Both the position numbers and the translations under genes were made by a program. Positions 2,506 to 58,312 of a stretch of 60,566 nucleotides of DNA are shown here, piece after piece; position 1 is the stretch's first letter, and each line of letters begins with the position of its first letter. The stretch spans positions 1 through 60,566 of the forward strand of contig MNEX01000162.1 of the NCBI GenBank assembly GCA_001917905.1. The letters run 5' to 3'. The stretch is from Acidobacteria bacterium 13_1_40CM_65_14. GTDB taxonomy: Bacteria; Acidobacteriota; Vicinamibacteria; Vicinamibacterales; CAVVIG01. Under the pieces are notes generated by a model, which had not been told where the DNA came from, did no database searches, and was given only the letters and a program-made list of their open reading frames with translations.

Positions 2506-3504
2506 TTACATCAGAACAACGAAGGGATGCAAAAGCCCTGGCGTGCGCGCGGCCTCGGCAATGCCGACCAGCGCGCCCGTGGAATCCACCAGCCGGACCA
2601 ATCCCGAATCCGGAGCCGCAAAGCCCGATACGGCATCGCGCGGCGCCAGATCGCGTCCTTGAATCGCGTGGCGCACGCCGTCGAGGGTCAGCACCACGGC
2701 GCGCAACTCCGGCAGCATGCACGCGAGCGGGACGACTGACGCTCTCGCGCGATCGTGATCCTGCTCGGCTGCCGCCAACTCGATCGCGCCGGCGAGCGTG
2801 AACTCGCCGCTCCGCGTCCGCCTCAGCCGCTCGAGGTGCGCGCCCGTGCCGAGCATCTGCCCCAGGTCATGCGCCAGTGACCGCACGTAGAACCCGGCGG
2901 AGCAGTCCACGGTCAGCGTCAGTCGATCTGCTTCGACGCCAACAACTTCGAGCCGGTGAATCGTTACGTTGGCTGGCGCCGGCAGCGCGCCGTCAGACTG
3001 ACGGTCAGACTGTCGGTCAGACTCGCGGTCAGACTGACGGTCAGACTCGCGGTCAGACTGACGGTCAGACTCACCGTCAGACTGACGGTCAGACCTCTGC
3101 CGGGCGCGGGCGAGCTTATGGCTGCGCTTGCCGCCGATCTTCTTGGCTGAGAATGCCGGAGGCTGTTGAAGGAACGTTCCGCGAAACGCGTCGAGTGCGC
3201 GATCGATCGCGTCACGCGACGGCAGGGAACCGGCAAATGGCGATCCGATCGGGGCGCCGACGGCATCGGCAGTGTCAGTCGACACGCCGAGCCGGATGAC
3301 CGCCTCGTACGACTTGTCGCTCGTACTCAGGAACCGCGCGAGCCGCGTCGCGCGACCGACGACCAGCGCCAGTACGCCAGTTGCGAGCGGATCGAGCGTG
3401 CCAGTGTGCCCGACACGCCGCTCGCCGAGCACGCGGCGCAGGCGCGCGACGACATCGTGGCTGGTCGGACCTGACGGTTTGTCGACGACTAGAAGACCGT
3501 CCAT
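2506..3504 (-). CDS. truB: tRNA pseudouridine(55) synthase TruB carrying a repeat-encoded 36-aa insertion
   Basis: N-terminus MDGLLVVDKPSGPTSHDVV and the catalytic-Asp motif GHTGTLDPLATG are present. It occupies the operon position between nrnA and rpsO. An SDRQ/SDRE stretch interrupts the KRSHKLAR..VTIHRLEV region. Confidence 0.93.
   Translation of the reverse strand: MDGLLVVDKPSGPTSHDVVARLRRVLGERRVGHTGTLDPLATGVLALVVGRATRLARFLSTSDKSYEAVIRLGVSTDTADAVGAPIGSPFAGSLPSRDAIDRALDAFRGTFLQQPPAFSAKKIGGKRSHKLARARQRSDRQSDGESDRQSDRESDRQSDRESDRQSDRQSDGALPAPANVTIHRLEVVGVEADRLTLTVDCSAGFYVRSLAHDLGQMLGTGAHLERLRRTRSGEFTLAGAIELAAAEQDHDRARASVVPLACMLPELRAVVLTLDGVRHAIQGRDLAPRDAVSGFAAPDSGLVRLVDSTGALVGIAEAARTPGLLHPFVVLM
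2991..3094. repeat. 12-nt tandem repeat (GGTCAGACTGAC)n, about 8.7 units, inside truB
   Basis: cgtcagactgacggtcagactgtcggtcagactcgcggtcagactgacgg... read directly. The period of 12 keeps the truB frame and encodes SDRQSDGESDRQSDRESDRQSDRESDRQSDRQSDG. The unit is the reverse complement of the unit in the array at 50226-50390. Confidence 0.95.
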
Positions 3505-4983: not shown

Positions 4984-5069
4984 TAAGTCTGAAGTCTGAA
5001 GTCTGAAGTAGGAAGTACGAAGCCTGACGAAACCCGAGACAGACAGACTTCAGACTTCGAACGTCAGAC
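4984..5069. repeat. hairpin with (GTCTGAA)-type repeat arms between DUF503 and rbfA
   Basis: Left arm gtctgaagtctgaagtctgaagtaggaagtacgaagcctgacg; right arm cagacagacttcagacttcgaacgtcagact. It uses the same arm motif as the element at 25774-25845. Confidence 0.85.
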
Positions 5070-11607: not shown

Positions 11608-11620
11608 GTTTGACAAAAAG

Positions 11621-13824: not shown

Positions 13825-14865
13825 TTACTGGAGCTCTTCGATGTGCGAGGCGAGCAGATCGTGGAGGCGCGCGAAGCGCGAGTACTTCTCGAGGTTGGAG
13901 CGCGCGTAGCGCAGCGTGCGCGGCATGTACTGAATGTAGACCGGGTTCGCGCGCGTCATGGTCTGGTAGCCGAACGTCCCGAGCGCCTTCAGGTTGCGCT
14001 GCAGCGCCATGAGATCGAATCGGCGCCGGAACTGGTCGGCGCCCCCGTCGGGCGTGCAGCGCGTCAGCGCGAGAAAGTACGCGACGAGCTCGTCGAGCTC
14101 GCGATCGGTGATGTCCACGTACGAGTCGCGCAGCAGCGACACCAGATCGTAGGTGTCCGGTCCCATCCGCGCGTCCTGGAAGTCGATGATGTACAGGCTG
14201 CCATCGCTGAGCATCAGGTTGCGACTGTGATAATCACGGTGGCACAGCACCCGCGGCTCGGTCGCGAGCTCCCGGACGATCGACGCCCATTCATCCGCCA
14301 ACGTGGATCGTTCGGCGGGCGAGAGCGTGACGCCGCGATAGCCGCCGACGAAGTGCTTGGTGAAGAACTCGAGCTCCCACGTGAGCTTGTCGACGTCGAA
14401 TGCACTCTTGTACGGCAGGTAGCGATCCGATTCCAGTTCCTCGCCGCGCCGCTGCAGCAACTCGATGAGCGTGACCGCCTGGCGATACAGCGCCGCATGT
14501 TCGGTTGCCGAGGAGGCTCCCAGGTGAGCCTGCAGCGTGACGTCGCCGAGATCCTGGAGCGCCAGAATGCCGAGCGCATCGGAGTGTCCGAGCACGGCAG
14601 GCACGGGCAGCCCGATTCGCTGCATCAGCTCCGCGACGTTCGCGAAGGGAAGATCGGCGAAGGTGATCGACCCGGCGTGCAGCGCCAGGACGATTGACGG
14701 TTCCTCGTCTGGAATGATCCGGAAGTATTTGCGATCGGATGCGTCGCCGGTCAGCGGCACGACGCGCGCGTGCCGCTCGGCGAGCCCGCTCTCGTGCAGA
14801 TAGCGATCGATCCGATCGCGCACGTCGAGGCGTTGACTCGCGGCGGCCGTCCGCTCAGTCAACAT
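13825..14865 (-). CDS. amgK: aminoglycoside-phosphotransferase-fold kinase, AmgK-like (N-acetylmuramate/GlcNAc anomeric kinase)
   Basis: APH-fold motifs HRDYHSRNLM and IIDFQDA are present, and it lies next to a MurU-like nucleotidyltransferase. The specific substrate is inferred from that pairing. Confidence 0.7.
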   Translation of the reverse strand: MLTERTAAASQRLDVRDRIDRYLHESGLAERHARVVPLTGDASDRKYFRIIPDEEPSIVLALHAGSITFADLPFANVAELMQRIGLPVPAVLGHSDALGILALQDLGDVTLQAHLGASSATEHAALYRQAVTLIELLQRRGEELESDRYLPYKSAFDVDKLTWELEFFTKHFVGGYRGVTLSPAERSTLADEWASIVRELATEPRVLCHRDYHSRNLMLSDGSLYIIDFQDARMGPDTYDLVSLLRDSYVDITDRELDELVAYFLALTRCTPDGGADQFRRRFDLMALQRNLKALGTFGYQTMTRANPVYIQYMPRTLRYARSNLEKYSRFARLHDLLASHIEELQ

Positions 14866-15040
14866 TCTGCCGCGAATCCGGCCCCAGCGCCTGCCACCGC
14901 TCGCTCGTTCGCTCGCGGCGTTGACTCGCGGCGGCCGTCCGCTCAGTCAACATTCTGCCGCGGATCCGGCCCCAGCGCCTGCCACCGCTCGCTCTTCGCT
15001 CGCGGCGTTGACTCGCGGCGGCTGTCCGCTCAGTCGACTC
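14832..15040. repeat. 87-88-bp tandem direct repeat, about 2.4 copies, spanning the murU-like 3' end, the spacer and the amgK-like 5' end
   Basis: Copies start with gttgactcgcggcggc at 14832, 14920 and 15007. Copies 1 and 2 are near-identical. Each unit begins with the palindrome gttgactcgcggcggccgtccgctcagtcaac. Confidence 0.93.
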
Positions 15041-16909: not shown

Positions 16910-18379
16910 TCATGTAACCCGCATCTTGTACGAGCAGCCACGGAGCGCCGGCGTGCCGACGCCTTTGCCGAAGATCAGAATCTTGTGTGTGCTCCCAAGA
17001 CCCCCAGGCATGATCAGCGTCTTGAGATTGCGGATTGCGGATTGCGGATTGGGGGTTGATTGCGGATTGCGGATTTCAGGGAACAGACCCATCAAAAAGT
17101 ACGTCTGGTCCAGGAATCCGAGCGTCTGCAATCCTTCTTCCTCCGCCGCTTGGCGCACGCTCGTGAAGTCGACGTGCGCGGTGATGTCCTGCTCTCCGGG
17201 CGACTGCAGCCAAGGCGGTGCCGCTGCAGATGATTTTCTATCGCTCGTGGGGCCCCACCCCCACTCGGGCACCCCAGCGCGCACAGACCGCGCGCCGGGG
17301 ACCCCGCCGCTGCGGCTCGACTCGCGACGCTCGCTCGCCGCGGCCGCAGGCGCTTCCGGTCCCGCGCTGCGATGGCCGCTGTAGCTCGTGAGCGTTCCGG
17401 CTGCGTGCGTCGGCGAGTACAGCTCGCGCGCTTCGTGACCGTAGTCAATCAGGATGATGAACCCGCGCCGCAGACGCCGGGCCGCGTCGCGGATCCACTC
17501 GACGGCGCGAAGATTGATCTCCACGCGCCACCCTGCTTCGAGCTCGATACCGAGGCGCGCCAGATATTCCGCAAGCTTTGGCGTGGACGGGGGCCCTTCG
17601 ATTACGGTGAGGCCATCATCATTCTTGACATCTCGCGGGGCCCCACCCTCTCGCACCGCGCCGGGGCCCCACCCCCGGCGCTGTTGCTCGGCGCCAGCGC
17701 CTCGCAACGGCTCAAGGCTGTCGCTCGCCGACGCCCTCGCGCCGTGGCGCTCGGGCGTATCCAGAACAGAGCGTCGCTGACTGATGACGTACGTCTCGCG
17801 CAGGCCCTCTTCACGCATCACCACCTGATGCACGGGCAATGCGTCGAGGAGCTCGTTGGCGATGACCACACCGTCGAACGAACAGGGGAATGACGCGTCG
17901 GAAGAGGCGAGTCGTTCGGCGACATCGGCGAGCGTCGCCCGCTGCGCCGCACGCGCCCCGGCGCTGGCTTCGACGAGATGGAGCTGGATGGTGTCGTAGA
18001 ACGCGCGATCGCGTTCCCGCGCGGCGCGGAGGATGTCGGCGCTGAGCCGGCCGTTGCCGGCGCCGGCCTCGACTAGGTCGAATGCAACCGCGGAGCGCGC
18101 AGAGCGCGCTGAGTTGTGATGGATTCTCTCGGCGTTCTCAGCGACCTCTGCGGTTGCTTGGAGGATGCTCGCGATCTCGGCGAGCTGGATTTCGAGGAGC
18201 TCGCCGAACAGCGGACCGACATCGACGCTGGTAAAAAAATCGCCCGCGCGGCCAGATCGCTGGTCCGCGCGGGCGTAGTAGCCGAGCTCGGGATGGTAGA
18301 GCGCGAGGTCCATGAACGCAGCCACGGTCATCGGGCCGCGTTCACGAATCAAATCTGCAATCTGCAATCCAATCTGCAA
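16910..18379 (-). CDS. MidA-like (DUF185) SAM-dependent methyltransferase carrying several repeat-encoded insertions
   Basis: ..LIRERGPMTVAAFMDLALYHPELGYYA.., FFTSVDVGPLFGELL, LVEAGAGNGRLSADIL and GFIILIDYGH are present. At 489 aa it is about 100 aa longer than I remember for this family. The start is a TTG inside a heptamer array. Confidence 0.8.
   Translation of the reverse strand: MQIGLQIADLIRERGPMTVAAFMDLALYHPELGYYARADQRSGRAGDFFTSVDVGPLFGELLEIQLAEIASILQATAEVAENAERIHHNSARSARSAVAFDLVEAGAGNGRLSADILRAARERDRAFYDTIQLHLVEASAGARAAQRATLADVAERLASSDASFPCSFDGVVIANELLDALPVHQVVMREEGLRETYVISQRRSVLDTPERHGARASASDSLEPLRGAGAEQQRRGWGPGAVREGGAPRDVKNDDGLTVIEGPPSTPKLAEYLARLGIELEAGWRVEINLRAVEWIRDAARRLRRGFIILIDYGHEARELYSPTHAAGTLTSYSGHRSAGPEAPAAAASERRESSRSGGVPGARSVRAGVPEWGWGPTSDRKSSAAAPPWLQSPGEQDITAHVDFTSVRQAAEEEGLQTLGFLDQTYFLMGLFPEIRNPQSTPNPQSAIRNLKTLIMPGGLGSTHKILIFGKGVGTPALRGCSYKMRVT
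17036..17086. repeat. 7-nt tandem repeat (GATTGCG)n inside the 3' part of the MidA-like gene
   Basis: gattgcggattgcggattgcggattgggggttgattgcggattgcggattt. It encodes ..EIRNPQSTPNPQSAIRN.. in frame. Confidence 0.92.
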
Positions 18380-18403
18380 TCTGAAATCTGCAATCTGAAA
18401 TCT
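18347..18403. repeat. 7-nt tandem repeat (AATCTGC)n over the 5' end of the MidA-like gene
   Basis: aatcaaatctgcaatctgcaatccaatctgcaatctgaaatctgcaatctgaaatct. The unit is the reverse complement of the 17036-17086 unit apart from one purine (GCAGATT versus GCGGATT). Confidence 0.92.
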
Positions 18404-29005: not shown

Positions 29006-29012
29006 CCGTAAT

Positions 29013-29107
29013 GGTCATTGGTCATTGGTCATTGGTCATTGGTCGTTGGTCGTTGGTCGTTGGTCATTGGTCATTGGTCATTGGTCATTGGTCATTAGTC
29101 GTTGGTC
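29013..29107. repeat. 7-nt microsatellite (GGTCATT/GGTCGTT), 13 units plus a partial unit
   Basis: Counted unit by unit from 29013. It contains the stop and last 7 codons of the 29085-29531 gene and ends 8 nt before the start codon of the dehydratase gene (29005). Confidence 0.97.
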
Positions 29108-29541: not shown

Positions 29542-30729
29542 TCATTTCTTCAGGAGCTCGCGAACCTTCTCGATGGGGATGGCCTGCGCGGTGCCGACGC
29601 GTGACGTCGTCGTGGTCGCCTGGAACAGCGAGTTGTACACCGCTTCTTCGGTCGCCTCGAGCGCCGCTTCGAAGAGGGGAGACATCGCGTCGGGCGGCAG
29701 CACCTGCCGCGCGCGCGGCGTCGTCTCGTCGAACCGGCTGCGCATCTCCAGCGAGGTCGAGAACGCGATCGCGAAATCGCCGCTGCCATTGCTGTAGGCC
29801 GATCCCGTGCGGGCGAGGCCGAATACGGCGCGTCGCGCGAGGCGCTGCAGATCGCGCGCGTCGCACGGCGCATCGGTCGCGACGACGAGCATGCAGGACC
29901 CATGAGCTGACGCCGGGTCCACAGGACCCGGCCTACGTACGTCCGCAGACCGCCGCGACGGCGGTTGCAGAAGTTTGAAGATCGGAACGCCGCTGATCGT
30001 GAGGTTGCCGCCGAAGTTCGTTTGGGCCAGCACGCCGACCGTGTATGCCCCGACGCGCCCTGAGCCTGTCGAAGGGTCGACTTTTCGCGACGAAGTCCCG
30101 ATGCCGCCTTTCCATCCGTAGCAGATCGTTCCGGTGCCCGCGCCGACCGCGCCTTCCGTCACCGCTCCGCTCTTCGCGTTTCTGATCGCGTCGATGACGT
30201 GCTCGCGCGAGACGTGCAGTCCGCGGATGTCGTTCAAGCCACCGTCGTTGGTTTCACCCACGACCGCGTTCACCGATCGCACCTGCTCGTTGCCCGGTTG
30301 TGCCAGGGTGTAGCGGACGACCGCGTCCATCGCCGCGCCGACACTCAACGTGTTGGTCAGCACGATCGGCGTTTCGATCGTGCCGAGCTCGTTCACCTGG
30401 GTCGATCCCGCGAGCTTGCCGAACGCGTTGCCGACGAAGACGGCGCCCGCCACCTTGTCCTGAAACACGTTGCCGCCATGCGGAACGATCGCCGTCACGC
30501 CCGTCCGCACGTCGTCGCCCTCGATGAGCGTCGTGTGACCGACGCGCACGCCGTCGACATCGGTGATCGCGTTGAGCGGTCCCGGCTGATACACGCCCGG
30601 CGCGATGCCGAGATCCCGGGCGCGCGGCCGGCTTTGGCCCACGACGGCCACGCCGCTCTGTGCAGAAATGAGCACGACGAGGAGTCCAAGCCACTTTCGG
30701 CCAGCGTGAGGCTTACATGGCTCTTGCAT
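29542..30729 (-). CDS. P1/S58-family (DmpA-like) aminopeptidase
   Basis: Signal-like N-terminus, GPLNAITDVDGVRVGHTT.., GVTAIVP, VVGETNDGGLNDIRG, GAGTGTICYGWKGGIGTSS and VVATDAP. Met 30729 is preferred over the track start at 30765. Confidence 0.85.
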   Translation of the reverse strand: MQEPCKPHAGRKWLGLLVVLISAQSGVAVVGQSRPRARDLGIAPGVYQPGPLNAITDVDGVRVGHTTLIEGDDVRTGVTAIVPHGGNVFQDKVAGAVFVGNAFGKLAGSTQVNELGTIETPIVLTNTLSVGAAMDAVVRYTLAQPGNEQVRSVNAVVGETNDGGLNDIRGLHVSREHVIDAIRNAKSGAVTEGAVGAGTGTICYGWKGGIGTSSRKVDPSTGSGRVGAYTVGVLAQTNFGGNLTISGVPIFKLLQPPSRRSADVRRPGPVDPASAHGSCMLVVATDAPCDARDLQRLARRAVFGLARTGSAYSNGSGDFAIAFSTSLEMRSRFDETTPRARQVLPPDAMSPLFEAALEATEEAVYNSLFQATTTTSRVGTAQAIPIEKVRELLKK

Positions 30730-30844
30730 GACGGAATTGTACTGGTATGATGCGCGACAGCTCAAAGCTACTCAGTCCCCTAATGGTCCATACCGTCGTC
30801 TGCCCCACGACGACGCGGGTTGGTGTGTTGTCGGCGGAGGGTGC

Positions 30845-33339: not shown

Positions 33340-33435
33340 GAATCGGGTAATTGGATAATCGGGTAATCTGGTAATTGGATTGCTCGATTGACCAATCCGC
33401 TTACCCGATCACCCGATTACCCGATTACTCGATTC
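33340..33435. repeat. hairpin with (GGGTAATYG)-type repeat arms
   Basis: gaatcgggtaattggataatcgggtaatctggtaattggattg-ctcgattga-ccaatccgcttacccgatcacccgattacccgattactcgattc. Same family as 58197-58312. There is a half-copy at about 36570-36600. Confidence 0.9.
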
Positions 33436-39714: not shown

Positions 39715-39810
39715 CCTCGCCACCACGGGGGACACGGAGGATAGGAGGTTCGAACCTGTTCAAAGCGGGATTTTTCCTCCGCGTCCCCCGTGTCCTCCGC
39801 GGTGGAGAGC
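39715..39810. repeat. A-family hairpin repeat, copy A4 (left composite inverted repeat, part 1)
   Basis: cctcgccaccacgggggacacggaggataggaggttcgaacctgttcaaagcgggatttttcctccgcgtcccccgtgtcctccgcggtggagagc. It closely matches the reverse complement of A5. Confidence 0.9.
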
Positions 39811-39830: not shown

Positions 39831-39975
39831 TAACAGCCCGTGGTGAAAGTCTGGCTGCATTCGACGGGCGATGCATCCCCGCCGGCTGCGTTGCTCCTCG
39901 CTCAAATACTCCCGGTATTGCACCCCACCTCGCCCGTCTCGGTGCGACGCCAGACTTTCACCACGGGCTGCTAAG
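39831..39975. repeat. B element, 145 nt, perfect 21-bp terminal inverted repeats (MITE-like or structured RNA), left copy
   Basis: AGCCCGTGGTGAAAGTCTGGC ... GCCAGACTTTCACCACGGGCT. Its reverse complement is identical to the copy at 47841-48006 over about 47 nt and about 89 nt blocks, differing only in a central 8- versus 29-nt segment. Confidence 0.93.
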
Positions 39976-45696: not shown

Positions 45697-47805
45697 CTAA
45701 GGGTTCGAGGGTTGCGTCGTGGCGAGGTAGCGCGCGAGCCAGTCGTGAACTTCTTTGTACCAGACCATGCTGTTCTGCGGCTTGAGAATCCAGTGTCCTT
45801 CGTCCGGAAAGATGAGGAGCCGCGAGGGCACGCCCTGACGCTGCATCGCGGTGTAGAACTCGAGGCTTTGCGTGTACGGCACGCGATAGTCCTGTTCGCC
45901 CGCGATCACGAGCGTCGGCGTCTTGAACTTCCCGAAGTCCGCCGCGTACGAGCTCGGTGACCACTTCTGATAGGCGGCCGGACTGGTCCACGGCGTGCCG
46001 CCGAAATCATGCTCCGGAAACCAGAGCTCTTCGGTCGCGCCGTACATACTCGTCAGGTCGTAGACGCCGGCGTGCGAGATGAGCGCGCGAAACCGCCCGT
46101 TCGACTGCGACGCGAGCCAGTCCACCATGTAGCCGCCGTACGAGCCGCCGGCCGCCGCGACGCGCTGACGATCCGTGAACGAGTACCGGGCGAGCACCGA
46201 CTCCAGACCGTTCATCACGTCGGCGAACGCTTTGCCGCCCCAGTCGTTCGTGATCTCGTCGGTGAACTTCTGACCGAAGCCCGTCGAGCCGCGGCGATTG
46301 ATCAGCACGACGACGTAACCGGGCGACGCGAAGGTTTGCGCGTTCCAGCGATAGCTCCACGTGTCGCTCCACTGCGTCTGCGGACCGCCGTGCAGCAGCA
46401 GGACGACCGGATACTTTTTCGCGGCGTCGAACGCGGGCGGCCGCACGAGGAAGCCCTGGACGTCGGTGCCGCCAGCGCCCTTGAACGTGAACGACTCCGG
46501 CGTCGCGATGTCGAGCGGCGCGAGGACGCTGGCCGTGTGACGGGTGAGCGGCTTCGCGGCGCCGTTCGCCGAGATCGCGAAGAGCTCCGCCGGCGACGCC
46601 AGGCTGCTGCGCGACACCACCAGCGCGTCGCGCACCGCGTCGAACTCGCCGTCGAACGAGCCGGGCGTGATCGCCTTCGGAGCGCCTCCAGCCGCTGGGA
46701 TCATGAACACGGGCATCTCGCCGCGATCCTCGGCGTTGAAGTAGATCGACCGGCCGTCTGACGACCAGCGCAGGTCCTCGACGCTGCGATCGAACGCGTC
46801 GGTGAGGCTCGTGGATTTGCCCGTCGCGCGATCCATCAGCATCAGCCGCCACTTGTCAGTCTCGTAGCCAGGGCGCGCCTGCGATCGGTACGCGATCGAT
46901 GTGCCGTCCGGCGAATACGCGGGCGCGCCGTCGAATCCACGATTCGTCGTCAGCTTGCGCGGCGCTCCGGCCCTCGACTCGCTCTGCTCGCTCGGGCCGC
47001 CCTGAGCCTGTCGGAGGGCGCCGGTCACGTCGACCTCGAACAGGTCACCGTTGGTGCTCGTCGCCTCAACAGGCTCGGTGACAGCGGTGAAGCAGATCGT
47101 CTTGCTGTCGGGCGAGAACGCGATGGGATGCGGACCTTCGCGCTGAACCGGAGGCACGTCGTAGTCGGCGCCCGGCAACAGATCGCGCGCGTCTCCGCCA
47201 TTCGCCGAGACGATGAACGGATGCGTGCGCTTGCCCTCGCTCCACGACGACCAGTGACGATAGAGCAGCCGCTCGTAGATGCGCGCCTTGCTCGGATTCT
47301 CGCCGCGCGCCTTGTCCCGCGCCGCGTTGCACGCATCGTCTTTGCAGTCGGGATAGACCTCCGTCGTGAACGCGATCGAGCGGCCGTCGGGCGCCCAGAC
47401 AATGCCGTCGACGTCGCTCGAGACGTTCGTCACCTGTTTCGGGCTGCCGCTGCCGTCCGCGTTCATCACATACAGCTGCATGCTGCCGCTGCGAGTCGAG
47501 ATGAAGGCGATGCGCTTGCCGTCGGGCGACCACCGGCCGCGGCCTTCATGACCGCCTGTCGTCAGCGCACGCGCCTCGCTGCTGGCGAGCGTCACCATCC
47601 AGACGTCGCGCGCCATGCGATTCGCTTTCACATCCGGAACCGCAAGCGTGTAGACGACGCGCGTCCCGTCGGGTGAGAGCTGCGGTTCGGAGATTCGCGG
47701 CATCGACAGCAGATCGGCGACAGTGATGGGTCGTCCCGCCGCGTTGGCTGCGGCGACGGCAACAAGAACGATCAACGCAGAGATCGCAGAGGAGATCTTC
47801 TTCAT
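45697..47805 (-). CDS. S9-family serine peptidase (prolyl oligopeptidase/acylaminoacyl peptidase type) with an N-terminal beta-propeller
   Basis: Signal peptide, repeated ..SPDG..IAF.. blades, and a catalytic domain with GGSYGGYM, ..GEQDYRVP.. and ..DEGHW.. Confidence 0.92.
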   Translation of the reverse strand: MKKISSAISALIVLVAVAAANAAGRPITVADLLSMPRISEPQLSPDGTRVVYTLAVPDVKANRMARDVWMVTLASSEARALTTGGHEGRGRWSPDGKRIAFISTRSGSMQLYVMNADGSGSPKQVTNVSSDVDGIVWAPDGRSIAFTTEVYPDCKDDACNAARDKARGENPSKARIYERLLYRHWSSWSEGKRTHPFIVSANGGDARDLLPGADYDVPPVQREGPHPIAFSPDSKTICFTAVTEPVEATSTNGDLFEVDVTGALRQAQGGPSEQSESRAGAPRKLTTNRGFDGAPAYSPDGTSIAYRSQARPGYETDKWRLMLMDRATGKSTSLTDAFDRSVEDLRWSSDGRSIYFNAEDRGEMPVFMIPAAGGAPKAITPGSFDGEFDAVRDALVVSRSSLASPAELFAISANGAAKPLTRHTASVLAPLDIATPESFTFKGAGGTDVQGFLVRPPAFDAAKKYPVVLLLHGGPQTQWSDTWSYRWNAQTFASPGYVVVLINRRGSTGFGQKFTDEITNDWGGKAFADVMNGLESVLARYSFTDRQRVAAAGGSYGGYMVDWLASQSNGRFRALISHAGVYDLTSMYGATEELWFPEHDFGGTPWTSPAAYQKWSPSSYAADFGKFKTPTLVIAGEQDYRVPYTQSLEFYTAMQRQGVPSRLLIFPDEGHWILKPQNSMVWYKEVHDWLARYLATTQPSNP

Positions 47806-47840: not shown

Positions 47841-48006
47841 TTAGCAGCCCGTGGTGAAAGTCTGGCGTCGCACCGAGACGGGCGAGGCGCCCCGCCGGCA
47901 AGGCGCGACGACCGAGAATACCGGGAGTATTTGAGCGAGGAGCAACGCAGCCGGCGGGGATGCATCGCCCGTCGAATGCAGCCAGACTTTCACCACGGGC
48001 TGTTAA
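47841..48006. repeat. B element, 166 nt, right copy (inverted relative to 39831-39975)
   Basis: ttagcagcccgtggtgaaagtctggcgtcgcaccgagacgggcgagg...aataccgggagtatttgagcgaggagcaacgcagccggcggggatgcatcgcccgtcgaatgcagccagactttcaccacgggctgttaa. Confidence 0.93.
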
Positions 48007-48007
48007 G

Positions 48008-48093
48008 CCTCGGTGGACACGGGGGACGCGGAGGAAGGTCTTGTTTGAATGGTTTTCAACCTCCTGTCCTCCGTGTCCCCCGTGGTGGTGAGG
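48008..48093. repeat. A-family hairpin repeat, copy A5 (right composite inverted repeat)
   Basis: cctcggtggacacgggggacgcggaggaaggtcttgtttgaatggttttcaacctcctgtcctccgtgtcccccgtggtggtgagg. Confidence 0.9.
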
Positions 48094-48104
48094 TCGTCTT
48101 GCTC

Positions 48105-50225: not shown

Positions 50226-50390
50226 AGTCTGACCGTCAGTCTGACCGCCAGTCTGACTGTCAGTCTGACCGCTAGTCTGACCGTCAGTCTGACCGTCAGT
50301 CTGACCGCCAGTCTGACCGTCAGTCTGACCGTCAGTCTGACCGCCAGTCTGACCGCTAGTCTGACCGCCAGTCTGACCTCGAGTCTGACT
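50226..50390. repeat. 12-nt tandem repeat (AGTCTGACCGYC)n, 13 full units plus a partial unit
   Basis: Counted unit by unit. It is the same 12-mer as inside truB, in opposite orientation. It lies in the divergent gap between the PIG-L gene and the 50399 ORF. Confidence 0.97.
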
Positions 50391-58196: not shown

Positions 58197-58214
<18 letters not shown>

Positions 58215-58312
58215 TCGGGTAATTGGGTAATTGGATTGGGGAATTGGGATACGAGACTGCGGTCAATCCACAATCAATTACCCGATTACCCGATTACCCG
58301 ATCATCCAATTC
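58197..58312. repeat. hairpin with (GGGTAATYG)-type repeat arms between convergent genes
   Basis: gaatcgggtaattgggtaatcgggtaattgggtaattggattgg...caatccacaatcaattacccgattacccgattacccgatcatccaattc. The regulator stop (58212-58214) lies in the left arm and the kinase-TPR stop (58302-58304) in the right arm. Confidence 0.9.

Follow-up and report, generated by a model that had tools for sequence, protein, structure and literature searches.

The stretch of DNA considered here (the window; 60,566 nucleotides of Acidobacteria bacterium 13_1_40CM_65_14, contig MNEX01000162.1) harbors two peptidase genes, one encoding an S9 family peptidase and the other a DmpA-like peptidase of family S58, that share a 21-mer, CGCCCTGAGCCTGTCG(A/G)AGGG. 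This 21-mer is probably the first hairpin of a short palindromic repeat, non-coding and dispersed, of the type represented by repetitive extragenic palindromic sequences (REPs) and miniature transposable elements with inverted repeats (MITEs), that was inserted in both genes. Copies of a two-hairpin module are found as insertions within the S9 gene, where the segment is 51 nt long and species-specific, and, from an earlier event, within loop 1 of the S58 protein, where a 27-nt remnant persists. The family to which these copies belong is multi-copy and structured, and is present in mobile contexts. A sequence-only reading of the window had proposed that a dispersed nucleotide repeat colonizes coding regions, and this is supported by at least 120 stretches outside the window, by the S9 and S58 insertions, and by a second, REP-type element in the S58 gene. 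The features concerned are the following.

45697..47805, minus strand: S9 family peptidase, host gene 1 (PD40 beta-propeller and Peptidase_S9 domain, 702 aa)
46970..47020, minus strand: S9 insert, 51 nt/17 codons, in frame, encoding ALRQAQGGPSEQSESRA (protein and DNA alignments, profile match)
46998..47020, minus strand: first hairpin of the S9 insert, CGCCC-TCCGACAGGCTCA-GGGCG on the coding strand, containing the 21-mer
46970..46997, minus strand: second hairpin of the S9 insert, GCCC-GAGC[GAGCAGAGCGA]GTCGA-GGGC (comparison with 126 copies, nhmmer)
29542..30765, minus strand: Peptidase_S58 (DmpA/P1 family), host gene 2 (called product 395 aa, start 30729)
30052..30078, minus strand: S58 loop-1 insert, 27 nt/9 codons, in frame, encoding DPSTGSGRV (GACCCTTCGACAGGCTCAGGGCGCGTC; orthologue DNA, nhmmer)

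Insertions in two peptidase genes

The 21-mer is found at exactly two sites in the window, 30056-30076 and 46998-47018, both on the plus strand. A pattern scan confirmed that the two copies are identical at 20 of 21 positions, as had been read from the letters alone, and there is no similarity past either end; the S58 coordinates given earlier also hold, and those of the S9 copy (46999-47019) were too high by a single base. The two copies are indeed translated in different frames. On the coding strand, the S9 copy begins at codon position 2 (..ALRQAQGG..) and the S58 copy at codon position 3 (..DPSTGSGR..), which gives the LRQAQG and PSTGSG peptides originally described, and in the S9 gene the 21-mer is followed by GGCCCGAGCGAGC..GAGTCGAGG, again as reported. 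Position 47014 is an A, the canonical base, in three of the four soil-metagenome runs that hold the species (contigs of X8, X12, and X13), and the S9 and S58 21-mers are therefore identical at all 21 positions in those contigs.

By itself, the 20/21 pair is not significant, because about one such pair is expected per simulated window. Markov models of order 1, 3, and 5 gave means of 0.6, 1.1, and 1.3 distant 20/21 pairs, with at least one such pair in 47-70% of the simulated windows (order 1-5), and a per-pattern expectation of 0.04 is post hoc and represents the wrong null for the pair. The significance of the match comes solely from evidence outside the window.

Part of this evidence is provided by orthologues. 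The S9 segment had been put forward as a possible insertion, to be judged by alignment, and this is what the alignment reveals: among 120 S9 sequences, ALRQAQGGPSEQSESRA is restricted to the window protein and P0002, which is from the same species, and the 118 others (57-84% identical) are without the insert, reading ..DV(x)G-G(x)PRKLTT... The closest orthologue with DNA (L121, GCA_036848175.1) is syntenic, with the gene order DUF5009 - S9 - MFS, and aligns with the window base for base save where a clean gap of 51 nt separates GG from CGG. The insert is therefore placed at 46970-47020, with a boundary that is ambiguous by 2-3 nt (GG^CGG), and the insertion appears to be recent and species-specific. 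In the AlphaFold model of the S9 protein, which has a mean pLDDT (predicted local distance difference test) of 77.8, residues 264-279 fall below a pLDDT of 50 and come after the strand at 253-259; the predicted structure is thus consistent with the insert occupying a disordered surface loop of the propeller. The model was used in place of a PDB alignment, because 8wt1, which is the best homologue, has diverged too far within that blade. A nearby segment at 47064-47078 (CCGAGCCTGTTGAGG, TEPVEA) was considered as a partner arm and rejected, as TDPVEA is kept in all orthologues and the segment is ordinary coding sequence.

Contigs of four soil metagenomes contain the S9 insert without gaps. Depth in the soil metagenomes is 3-6-fold higher over 46978-47031, because the unit is common to other contigs. 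A separate rise in soil contig depth, of ~10-fold over 35 nt, is observed at 47364-47398 inside the PD40 region of the same gene (VWAPDGRSIAF). This stretch is common to many other contigs at no more than 3 mismatches, and may represent either a coding motif that is conserved or a further repeat.

Loop 1 of the S58 protein follows GIGTSSRK; across 120 orthologues it is hypervariable, and accommodates from none to several units in different frames. Its contents include an empty form (LDRTN), PSTGSGR / PSTSSGR, PSTLRQAQGRPEPGRGATRSGTQAPSTGSGQ, LRPFDGLRAQGE, and LRQGQGER. In the window, the insert combines the first hairpin with what is left of the second (GACCC-TTCGACAGGCTCA-GGGCGCGTC). The insert DNA is missing in one orthologous locus (L122), relative to which the window has 27 extra nucleotides, is present with two substitutions in another (L125), and is extended to 96 nt and three units in a third (L123). 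The earlier suggestion that the region around VDPSTGSGR is an insertion is upheld by these comparisons; the event appears to be the older of the two, and the insert to have been later expanded, decayed, or lost according to lineage.

A second S58 segment, VRRPGPVDPA, had likewise been suspected of being inserted. It does represent an inserted repeat, only of a different kind, a GTAG-tagged REP rather than the 21-mer unit.

29912..29936, minus strand: GTAG-tagged REP in S58 loop 2, encoding VRRPGPVDPA; GTAG+GCCGGGTCC-TGT-GGACCCGGC, in frame, with a 9-bp stem and a 3-nt loop

The sequence of this REP is found in at least 119 stretches, nearly all of them from Vicinamibacterales/Acidobacteriota, with more than 35 in one metagenome-assembled genome (MAG) and variable 3-nt loops; the inclusion of GTAG in the search pattern biases the frequency of the tag upward. 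With its tag, stem, short loop, high copy number, and lineage restriction, the element at 29912-29936 is an ordinary, lineage-specific GTAG-REP. By a strict test, only 5 of 165 copies of this REP are intragenic, three of which represent this same S58 site. Loop 2 (after LLQPPSRRSA) differs in length among orthologues, some of which have up to four tandem ~57-nt repeats, each of the form TCATCC-TGAGCCTGTCGAA-GGATGA (PFDSPLILSLSKDERLAQDR x4). At one locus (L124 5800-6060, on a contig of ERZ27292906), four tandem ~57-nt unit-bearing repeats add ~76 residues to loop 2 and leave the frame intact.

Anatomy and distribution of the repeat family

An exact-match scan with one genome per species placed the 21-mer in at least 120 genome stretches, spread over more than 10 phyla and holding 134 copies; by our own estimate, ~0.5 occurrences of a 21-mer with one two-fold position would be expected in 596 Gb of uniform composition. 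Among the matches listed, to which the counts in this paragraph also refer, the hosts encompass Alpha-, Beta-, and Gammaproteobacteria, Chloroflexota, Actinomycetota, Cyanobacteriota, Myxococcota, Nitrospirota, Methylomirabilota, Bacteroidota, Fibrobacterota, Binatia, Campylobacterota, and Acidobacteriota, and the carriers include cultured isolates and closed chromosomes. Directly 5' of the 21-mer, CCGTT is found in 118 of the 134 copies. Two or more units are present in 93 of the 120 loci, and 72 of 76 forward-then-reverse neighbor pairs have an inverted copy, ..CTTCGACARGCTCAsssCGAACGG, within 17-94 nt. Tandem arrays of the unit are seen in three loci (L001, L041, and L033), those in L041 having a 22-nt period.

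The anatomy of the unit was derived from 134 neighbor units in whose selection the exact 21-mer had played no part. Their consensus is CCGTTCG-n-[stem]-TGAGCYTGTCGAA-[stem'], and the unit measures ~23-33 nt when single. It is a palindrome in which a covarying stem of 4-5 bp surrounds the fixed 13-nt loop TGAGCYTGTCGAA, and some units extend to a 10-bp stem, CCGTTCRYGG..CCRYGAACGG. The four pairs adjacent to the loop are formed in 92, 87, 90, and 74% of these units, with two to four pair types at each; at one position, G-C occurs 47 times, U-A 42 times, and C-G 28 times. The covariation score is 0.374, as against 0.178 +/- 0.011 after shuffling (none of 500 shuffles reaches 0.374) and at most 0.172 when the partners are slid. 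On the strength of the pair counts and this score, the loop and tail are fixed and the stem covaries. Neither a GTAG nor a CGTC tag forms part of the unit, the consensus 5' flank being CCGTTCG, and the intragenic copies are without the tail. A complete intergenic doublet, whose arms are inverted repeats, folds into a long and almost perfect hairpin (-74 kcal/mol, z -10.9).

In Acidobacteriota and some other phyla, the dominant form is a two-hairpin module of 45 nt (15 codons) with the consensus c-GACCC-TTCGACARGCTCA-GGGTC | GCCCC-GAGCnnnGTCGA-GGGGC-ga. The module was retrieved by scanning for the junction of the S9 insert, GACARGCTCAGGGNNGCCCSGAGC, which occurs in at least 120 stretches, most of them Acidobacteriota/Vicinamibacterales with several copies per MAG; other hosts among the matches listed are Acidimicrobiia, Phycisphaerae, Cyanobacteriota, and Kerfeldbacteria. 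Where the second loop is closed by T..A in the single unit, the module has C..G, a further instance of covariation. The S9 insert is a member of this module family with stems shorter than the consensus, and its second hairpin corresponds to the family GCCCC-GAGCnnnGTCGA-GGGGC with a loop that is 8 nt longer. Partial duplications GACCCTTCGACCCTTCGAC are also noted. In other Acidobacteriota, the module is seen placed between (GGGATTC)n arrays (L253, L265, L310, L341, and L355), which resemble the 7-/8-mer arrays in the spacers of the window.

An nhmmer profile built from 98 distinct copies, all from other genomes, matches the window at two sites only, 47019-46971 (model positions 3-44, E 1.1e-6) and 30079-30057 (model positions 1-23, E 1.2e-5). 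A strict family motif and a second profile, both defined outside the window, likewise match these two sites only; for the motif, 2 sites were observed as against 0.025 expected. A weak, isolated match to the unit loop at 14381-14395 (GTGAGCTTGTCGACG, nhmmer E 0.02-0.25) is probably due to chance or a decayed remnant.

The module is found within genes with some frequency. Intragenic copies were called by a strict test that requires an open frame over +/-180 nt together with a bias in GC content at third codon positions (GC3) on both sides; a criterion based on long open reading frames (ORFs) was dropped, as it is unreliable in GC-rich DNA. By this test, 28 of 120 assessable module copies among the matches listed (~23%) are intragenic, as against the 5 of 165 for the GTAG-REP (Fisher p 2e-7). 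Of the six frames, five are stop-free, both in the unit and in the module, and yet 24 of the 28 intragenic copies are translated as DPST(G/S)SGSPRAxSRG(D/E). Several of these represent one site in orthologous genes; by our count, the DPST-type frame is used at ~14 of roughly 18 independent sites, a share that greatly exceeds the one in five expected from the open frames. Host proteins of the module, as identified with Pfam, are a ValRS-type class I synthetase, an HlyD adaptor, a Cys/Met PLP enzyme, SMP-30/gluconolactonase, a histidine kinase, a MerR regulator, and LigD (twice). The exact 21-mer is in frame in CysRS (Flavobacteriales), PdxA (Binatia), and a GH63-like hydrolase (Acidobacteriota).

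No description of the family was found in Rfam, Pfam, or NCBIfam, nor in the searchable literature, which is not proof of novelty. At the gathering threshold, a search of the window and 18 loci against Rfam returned tRNAs alone, and the E-value mode returned noise alone. The translated units match nothing in Pfam or NCBIfam, and full-text literature searches with the nucleotide motifs and peptides retrieved unrelated primers alone. A triple-copy peptide query of a 5.8-billion protein set gave 5 weak matches, the word filter being a limit on such a query.

Mobility, mechanism, and alternative explanations

Horizontal movement of the repeat is indicated by its occurrence on plasmids and viral contigs. 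A GC-rich unit doublet is found, unannotated, in an AT-rich spacer of Moraxella osloensis plasmids; on plasmid p2 (NZ_CP024182.1, L126 2470-2525) it lies between the genes for a SIP-domain protein and a TonB-dependent receptor, and the same 30-nt match is present, again unannotated, in 9 Moraxella plasmids. In viral contigs, the 21-mer core is present in at least 120 stretches, where 30 of 131 copies have the tail.

We suggest that a trans-acting enzyme recognizes the conserved loop and tail on single-stranded DNA, much as Y1/HUH transposases do for REPs. Selection would then purge genic copies, sparing only in-frame, stop-free ones that lie in loops, and the difference in frame between the S9 and S58 copies would result from landing at different codon phases. 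Persistence within genes would be favored by a length that is a multiple of three, by the five stop-free frames, by Gly/Ser/Pro/Arg-rich peptides, and by surface-loop sites.

Several observations weigh against an inserted REP/MITE-type repeat. Clustering of the ORFs in 120 loci of 8 kb revealed no linked transposase or recurrent neighbor gene, the largest cluster being found in 9 loci. Widely spaced inverted units were considered as the ends of a larger or parent element and rejected, as they flank ftsZ (L040) and a Nif3-like gene (L067) and not transposases. No consistent target-site duplication is evident, and a survey of 101 copies was without a clear signal; of the inserts themselves, that in S9 has a boundary ambiguous by CG(G) and that in S58 has GTC..GTC. 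The contigs of the four soil metagenomes hold no empty-site allele of the S9 insert, although contigs hide rare variants, and recent mobility is therefore not observed. The two intragenic window copies have folding z-scores of about 0 relative to shuffled sequences, and are not strong hairpins now. REPs are normally lineage-specific, and a loop kept to the letter across phyla is unusual among them. Finally, the copy number in the source genome is known for the 60-kb window alone.

With no linked enzyme, parent element, consistent target duplication, or empty-site allele found, and with weak intragenic folding, spread without a dedicated transposase is a live rival, if an unlikely one. In this scenario, existing copies would act as templates for ectopic recombination or gene conversion, for hairpin-primed or template-switch repair synthesis, or for slippage. 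Besides the lack of a linked transposase and of a consistent target-site duplication, it would accommodate the local expansions and arrays (the four ~57-nt repeats of L124, the 22-nt arrays of L041, and the partial duplications), the second loop of the S9 insert, which looks slippage-expanded, and the variable number of units in the S58 loop. It leaves unexplained, however, how new isolated copies arose in the S9 gene and the Moraxella plasmid spacer, and how loops could be letter-perfect across phyla. A repair, recombination, or slippage route may explain the local arrays in any case.

The conserved loop and covarying stem are the classic signature of a structured functional element, and many copies lie between genes, such as those flanking ftsZ in L040. 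The motif could thus serve the host as an mRNA 3' stabilizer, a terminator hairpin, or a protein-binding site, and be kept by selection, with the intragenic copies incidental. This we regard as very unlikely, as no Rfam family matches, the distribution is patchy and multi-copy with numbers that vary between relatives, copies occur in AT-rich foreign contexts, and the strong folding is lost in intragenic copies.

Less probable still is selection at the level of the peptide, whereby flexible linkers such as PSTGSG or LRQAQG would have arisen convergently in both enzymes. The encoded segments are indeed hydrophilic, low-complexity loop peptides, and the use of one frame in 24 of 28 intragenic 45-nt copies shows that the peptide matters for retention. 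However, the window copies are alike in DNA and not in peptide, there being no common peptide because the frames differ, and the same DNA is frequent in non-coding spacers and in five different frames. Selection on the peptide would predict a peptide that is kept with scrambled codons, and the opposite is seen across copies. Chance, by which two GC-rich genes would merely have happened upon a common 20/21 match, has in its favor the 0.6-1.3 such pairs that composition-matched simulations yield per 60 kb and a likeness that ends at the 21 bases, but has already been refuted by the recurrence of the 21-mer in at least 120 genome stretches that are unrelated and in which its flanks and partners are conserved, by the status of the S9 and S58 copies as insertions relative to orthologues, and by externally built profiles that match exactly the two window sites.

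Beyond the inserted repeat itself, a more far-reaching proposal can be entertained, though we consider it doubtful. The hairpins could constitute an undescribed, domain-wide family whose letter-perfect loop is read by a horizontally moving, single-strand-specific enzyme or by an RNA-guided system, with the 45-nt form acting as a coding-competent mobile module that time and again adds DPSTGSGSPRAxSRG to the loops of housekeeping proteins. If true, this would represent a bacterial counterpart of exonized short interspersed elements (SINEs), on a scale much broader than that of the palindromic elements of Rickettsia.

Known repeat systems and other repeats in the window

The phenomenon belongs to a known kind, and its closest analogues are intragenic REPs and the Rickettsia palindromic elements (RPEs). 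The RPEs are palindromic, are found in frame in unrelated housekeeping genes, and are translated into a conserved peptide that is tolerated at fold-compatible positions (review PMC10969869). The module is likewise in frame in unrelated genes, with the 24 of 28 intragenic copies reading DPST(G/S)SGSPRAxSRG. However, RPEs are ~150 bp in length and confined to Rickettsia, whereas the module is 45 nt (51 nt in the S9 copy), bears no sequence relationship to them, and has hosts in many phyla; nor was it seen to be linked with any RPE family.

Intragenic REPs, including those in tRNA synthetase, DNA ligase, and truB genes, have been catalogued by Di Nocera et al. 2013 (PMC3733652), and the motifs of the unit are absent from the text and supplements of that paper. 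In common with REPs and the paired forms known as REPINs, the family consists of short GC-rich hairpins, mostly arranged as inverted head-to-head pairs 20-100 bp apart, which are multi-copy and occasionally intragenic. The unit differs in being without a GTAG/CGTC tag, its tail being CCGTTCG or absent. Its loop (11-13 nt) is conserved and its short stem covaries, whereas in REPs the stems are defined and the loops mostly tiny. The unit is also conserved across phyla, and a link to the REP-associated tyrosine transposases (RAYTs) was not found within 120 loci of 8 kb. Bacterial MITEs such as Correia/NEMIS, Nezha, and the Coxiella QMITEs are similarly non-autonomous hairpin elements with inverted repeats that reside in spacers and sometimes form in-frame ORF fusions. 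Unlike the unit, MITEs are 70-300 bp long and have terminal inverted repeats of 15-30 bp, target-site duplications, and a recognizable parent insertion sequence; neither a parent nor a consistent duplication was found for the unit. The unit is set apart from these systems by its conserved loop and covarying stem, its cross-phylum occurrence, and the high intragenic share of its 45-nt form.

Selfish palindromes that colonize genes in frame are usually mentioned as a curiosity of Rickettsia; here, the phenomenon is encountered with a far smaller module in soil Acidobacteriota and other phyla. The proteins affected include core enzymes such as aminoacyl-tRNA synthetases, LigD, PdxA, and peptidases. 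Inserts of 9-25 residues give rise to spurious 'lineage-specific' loops, broken assemblies, and spurious small ORFs in spacers. A loop that is letter-identical across more than 10 phyla, within stems that covary, points to a conserved reader, which comparative genomics could name. The strong frame preference represents a natural experiment on the random peptides that protein loops tolerate.

Other repeats are also found in the window. The bases that follow the 21-mer in the S9 gene had been likened to a repeat tail in rbfA, a comparison that is not supported: they are the second hairpin of the element, and the tail is a 12-nt tandem array in truB that has no profile match. This array, which is a second, unrelated repeat within a coding region, lies in frame in truB (2506..3504, minus strand) at 2992-3094 as GTCAGACTGACG x8.6, encodes RSDRQSDGESDRQSDRE..., and interrupts the TruB_N domain. 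An array of the same 12-mer (x13.7) is found inverted at 50226-50389, just upstream of a PIG-L-like gene.

A MITE-like element of ~145-165 nt, with terminal inverted repeats of ~22 nt (AGCCCGTGGTGAAAGTCTGGC ... GCCAGACTTTCACCACGGGCT), is present in opposite orientations at 39831-39975 and 47841-48007, the latter copy being immediately upstream of the S9 gene start. Both copies are adjoined by members of a hairpin family, CCACCACGGGGGACACGGAGGA ... TCCTCCGTGTCCCCCGTGGTGG, at ~39720-39800 and ~48010-48095. The intergenic spacers of the window are full of 7-/8-mer arrays (33341-33434, 58197-58302, 29012-29107, 17026-17075, 18352-18403, and 4985-5027), some of which pair as palindromes of the form (AATCGGGT)n...(ACCCGATT)n. 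An 88-nt tandem repeat (2.4 copies, 96% identical) occupies 14825-15035, and an all-against-all 21-mer scan detected a three-way set of dispersed, near-identical matches of ~28 nt each at 11618, 13735, and 16820.

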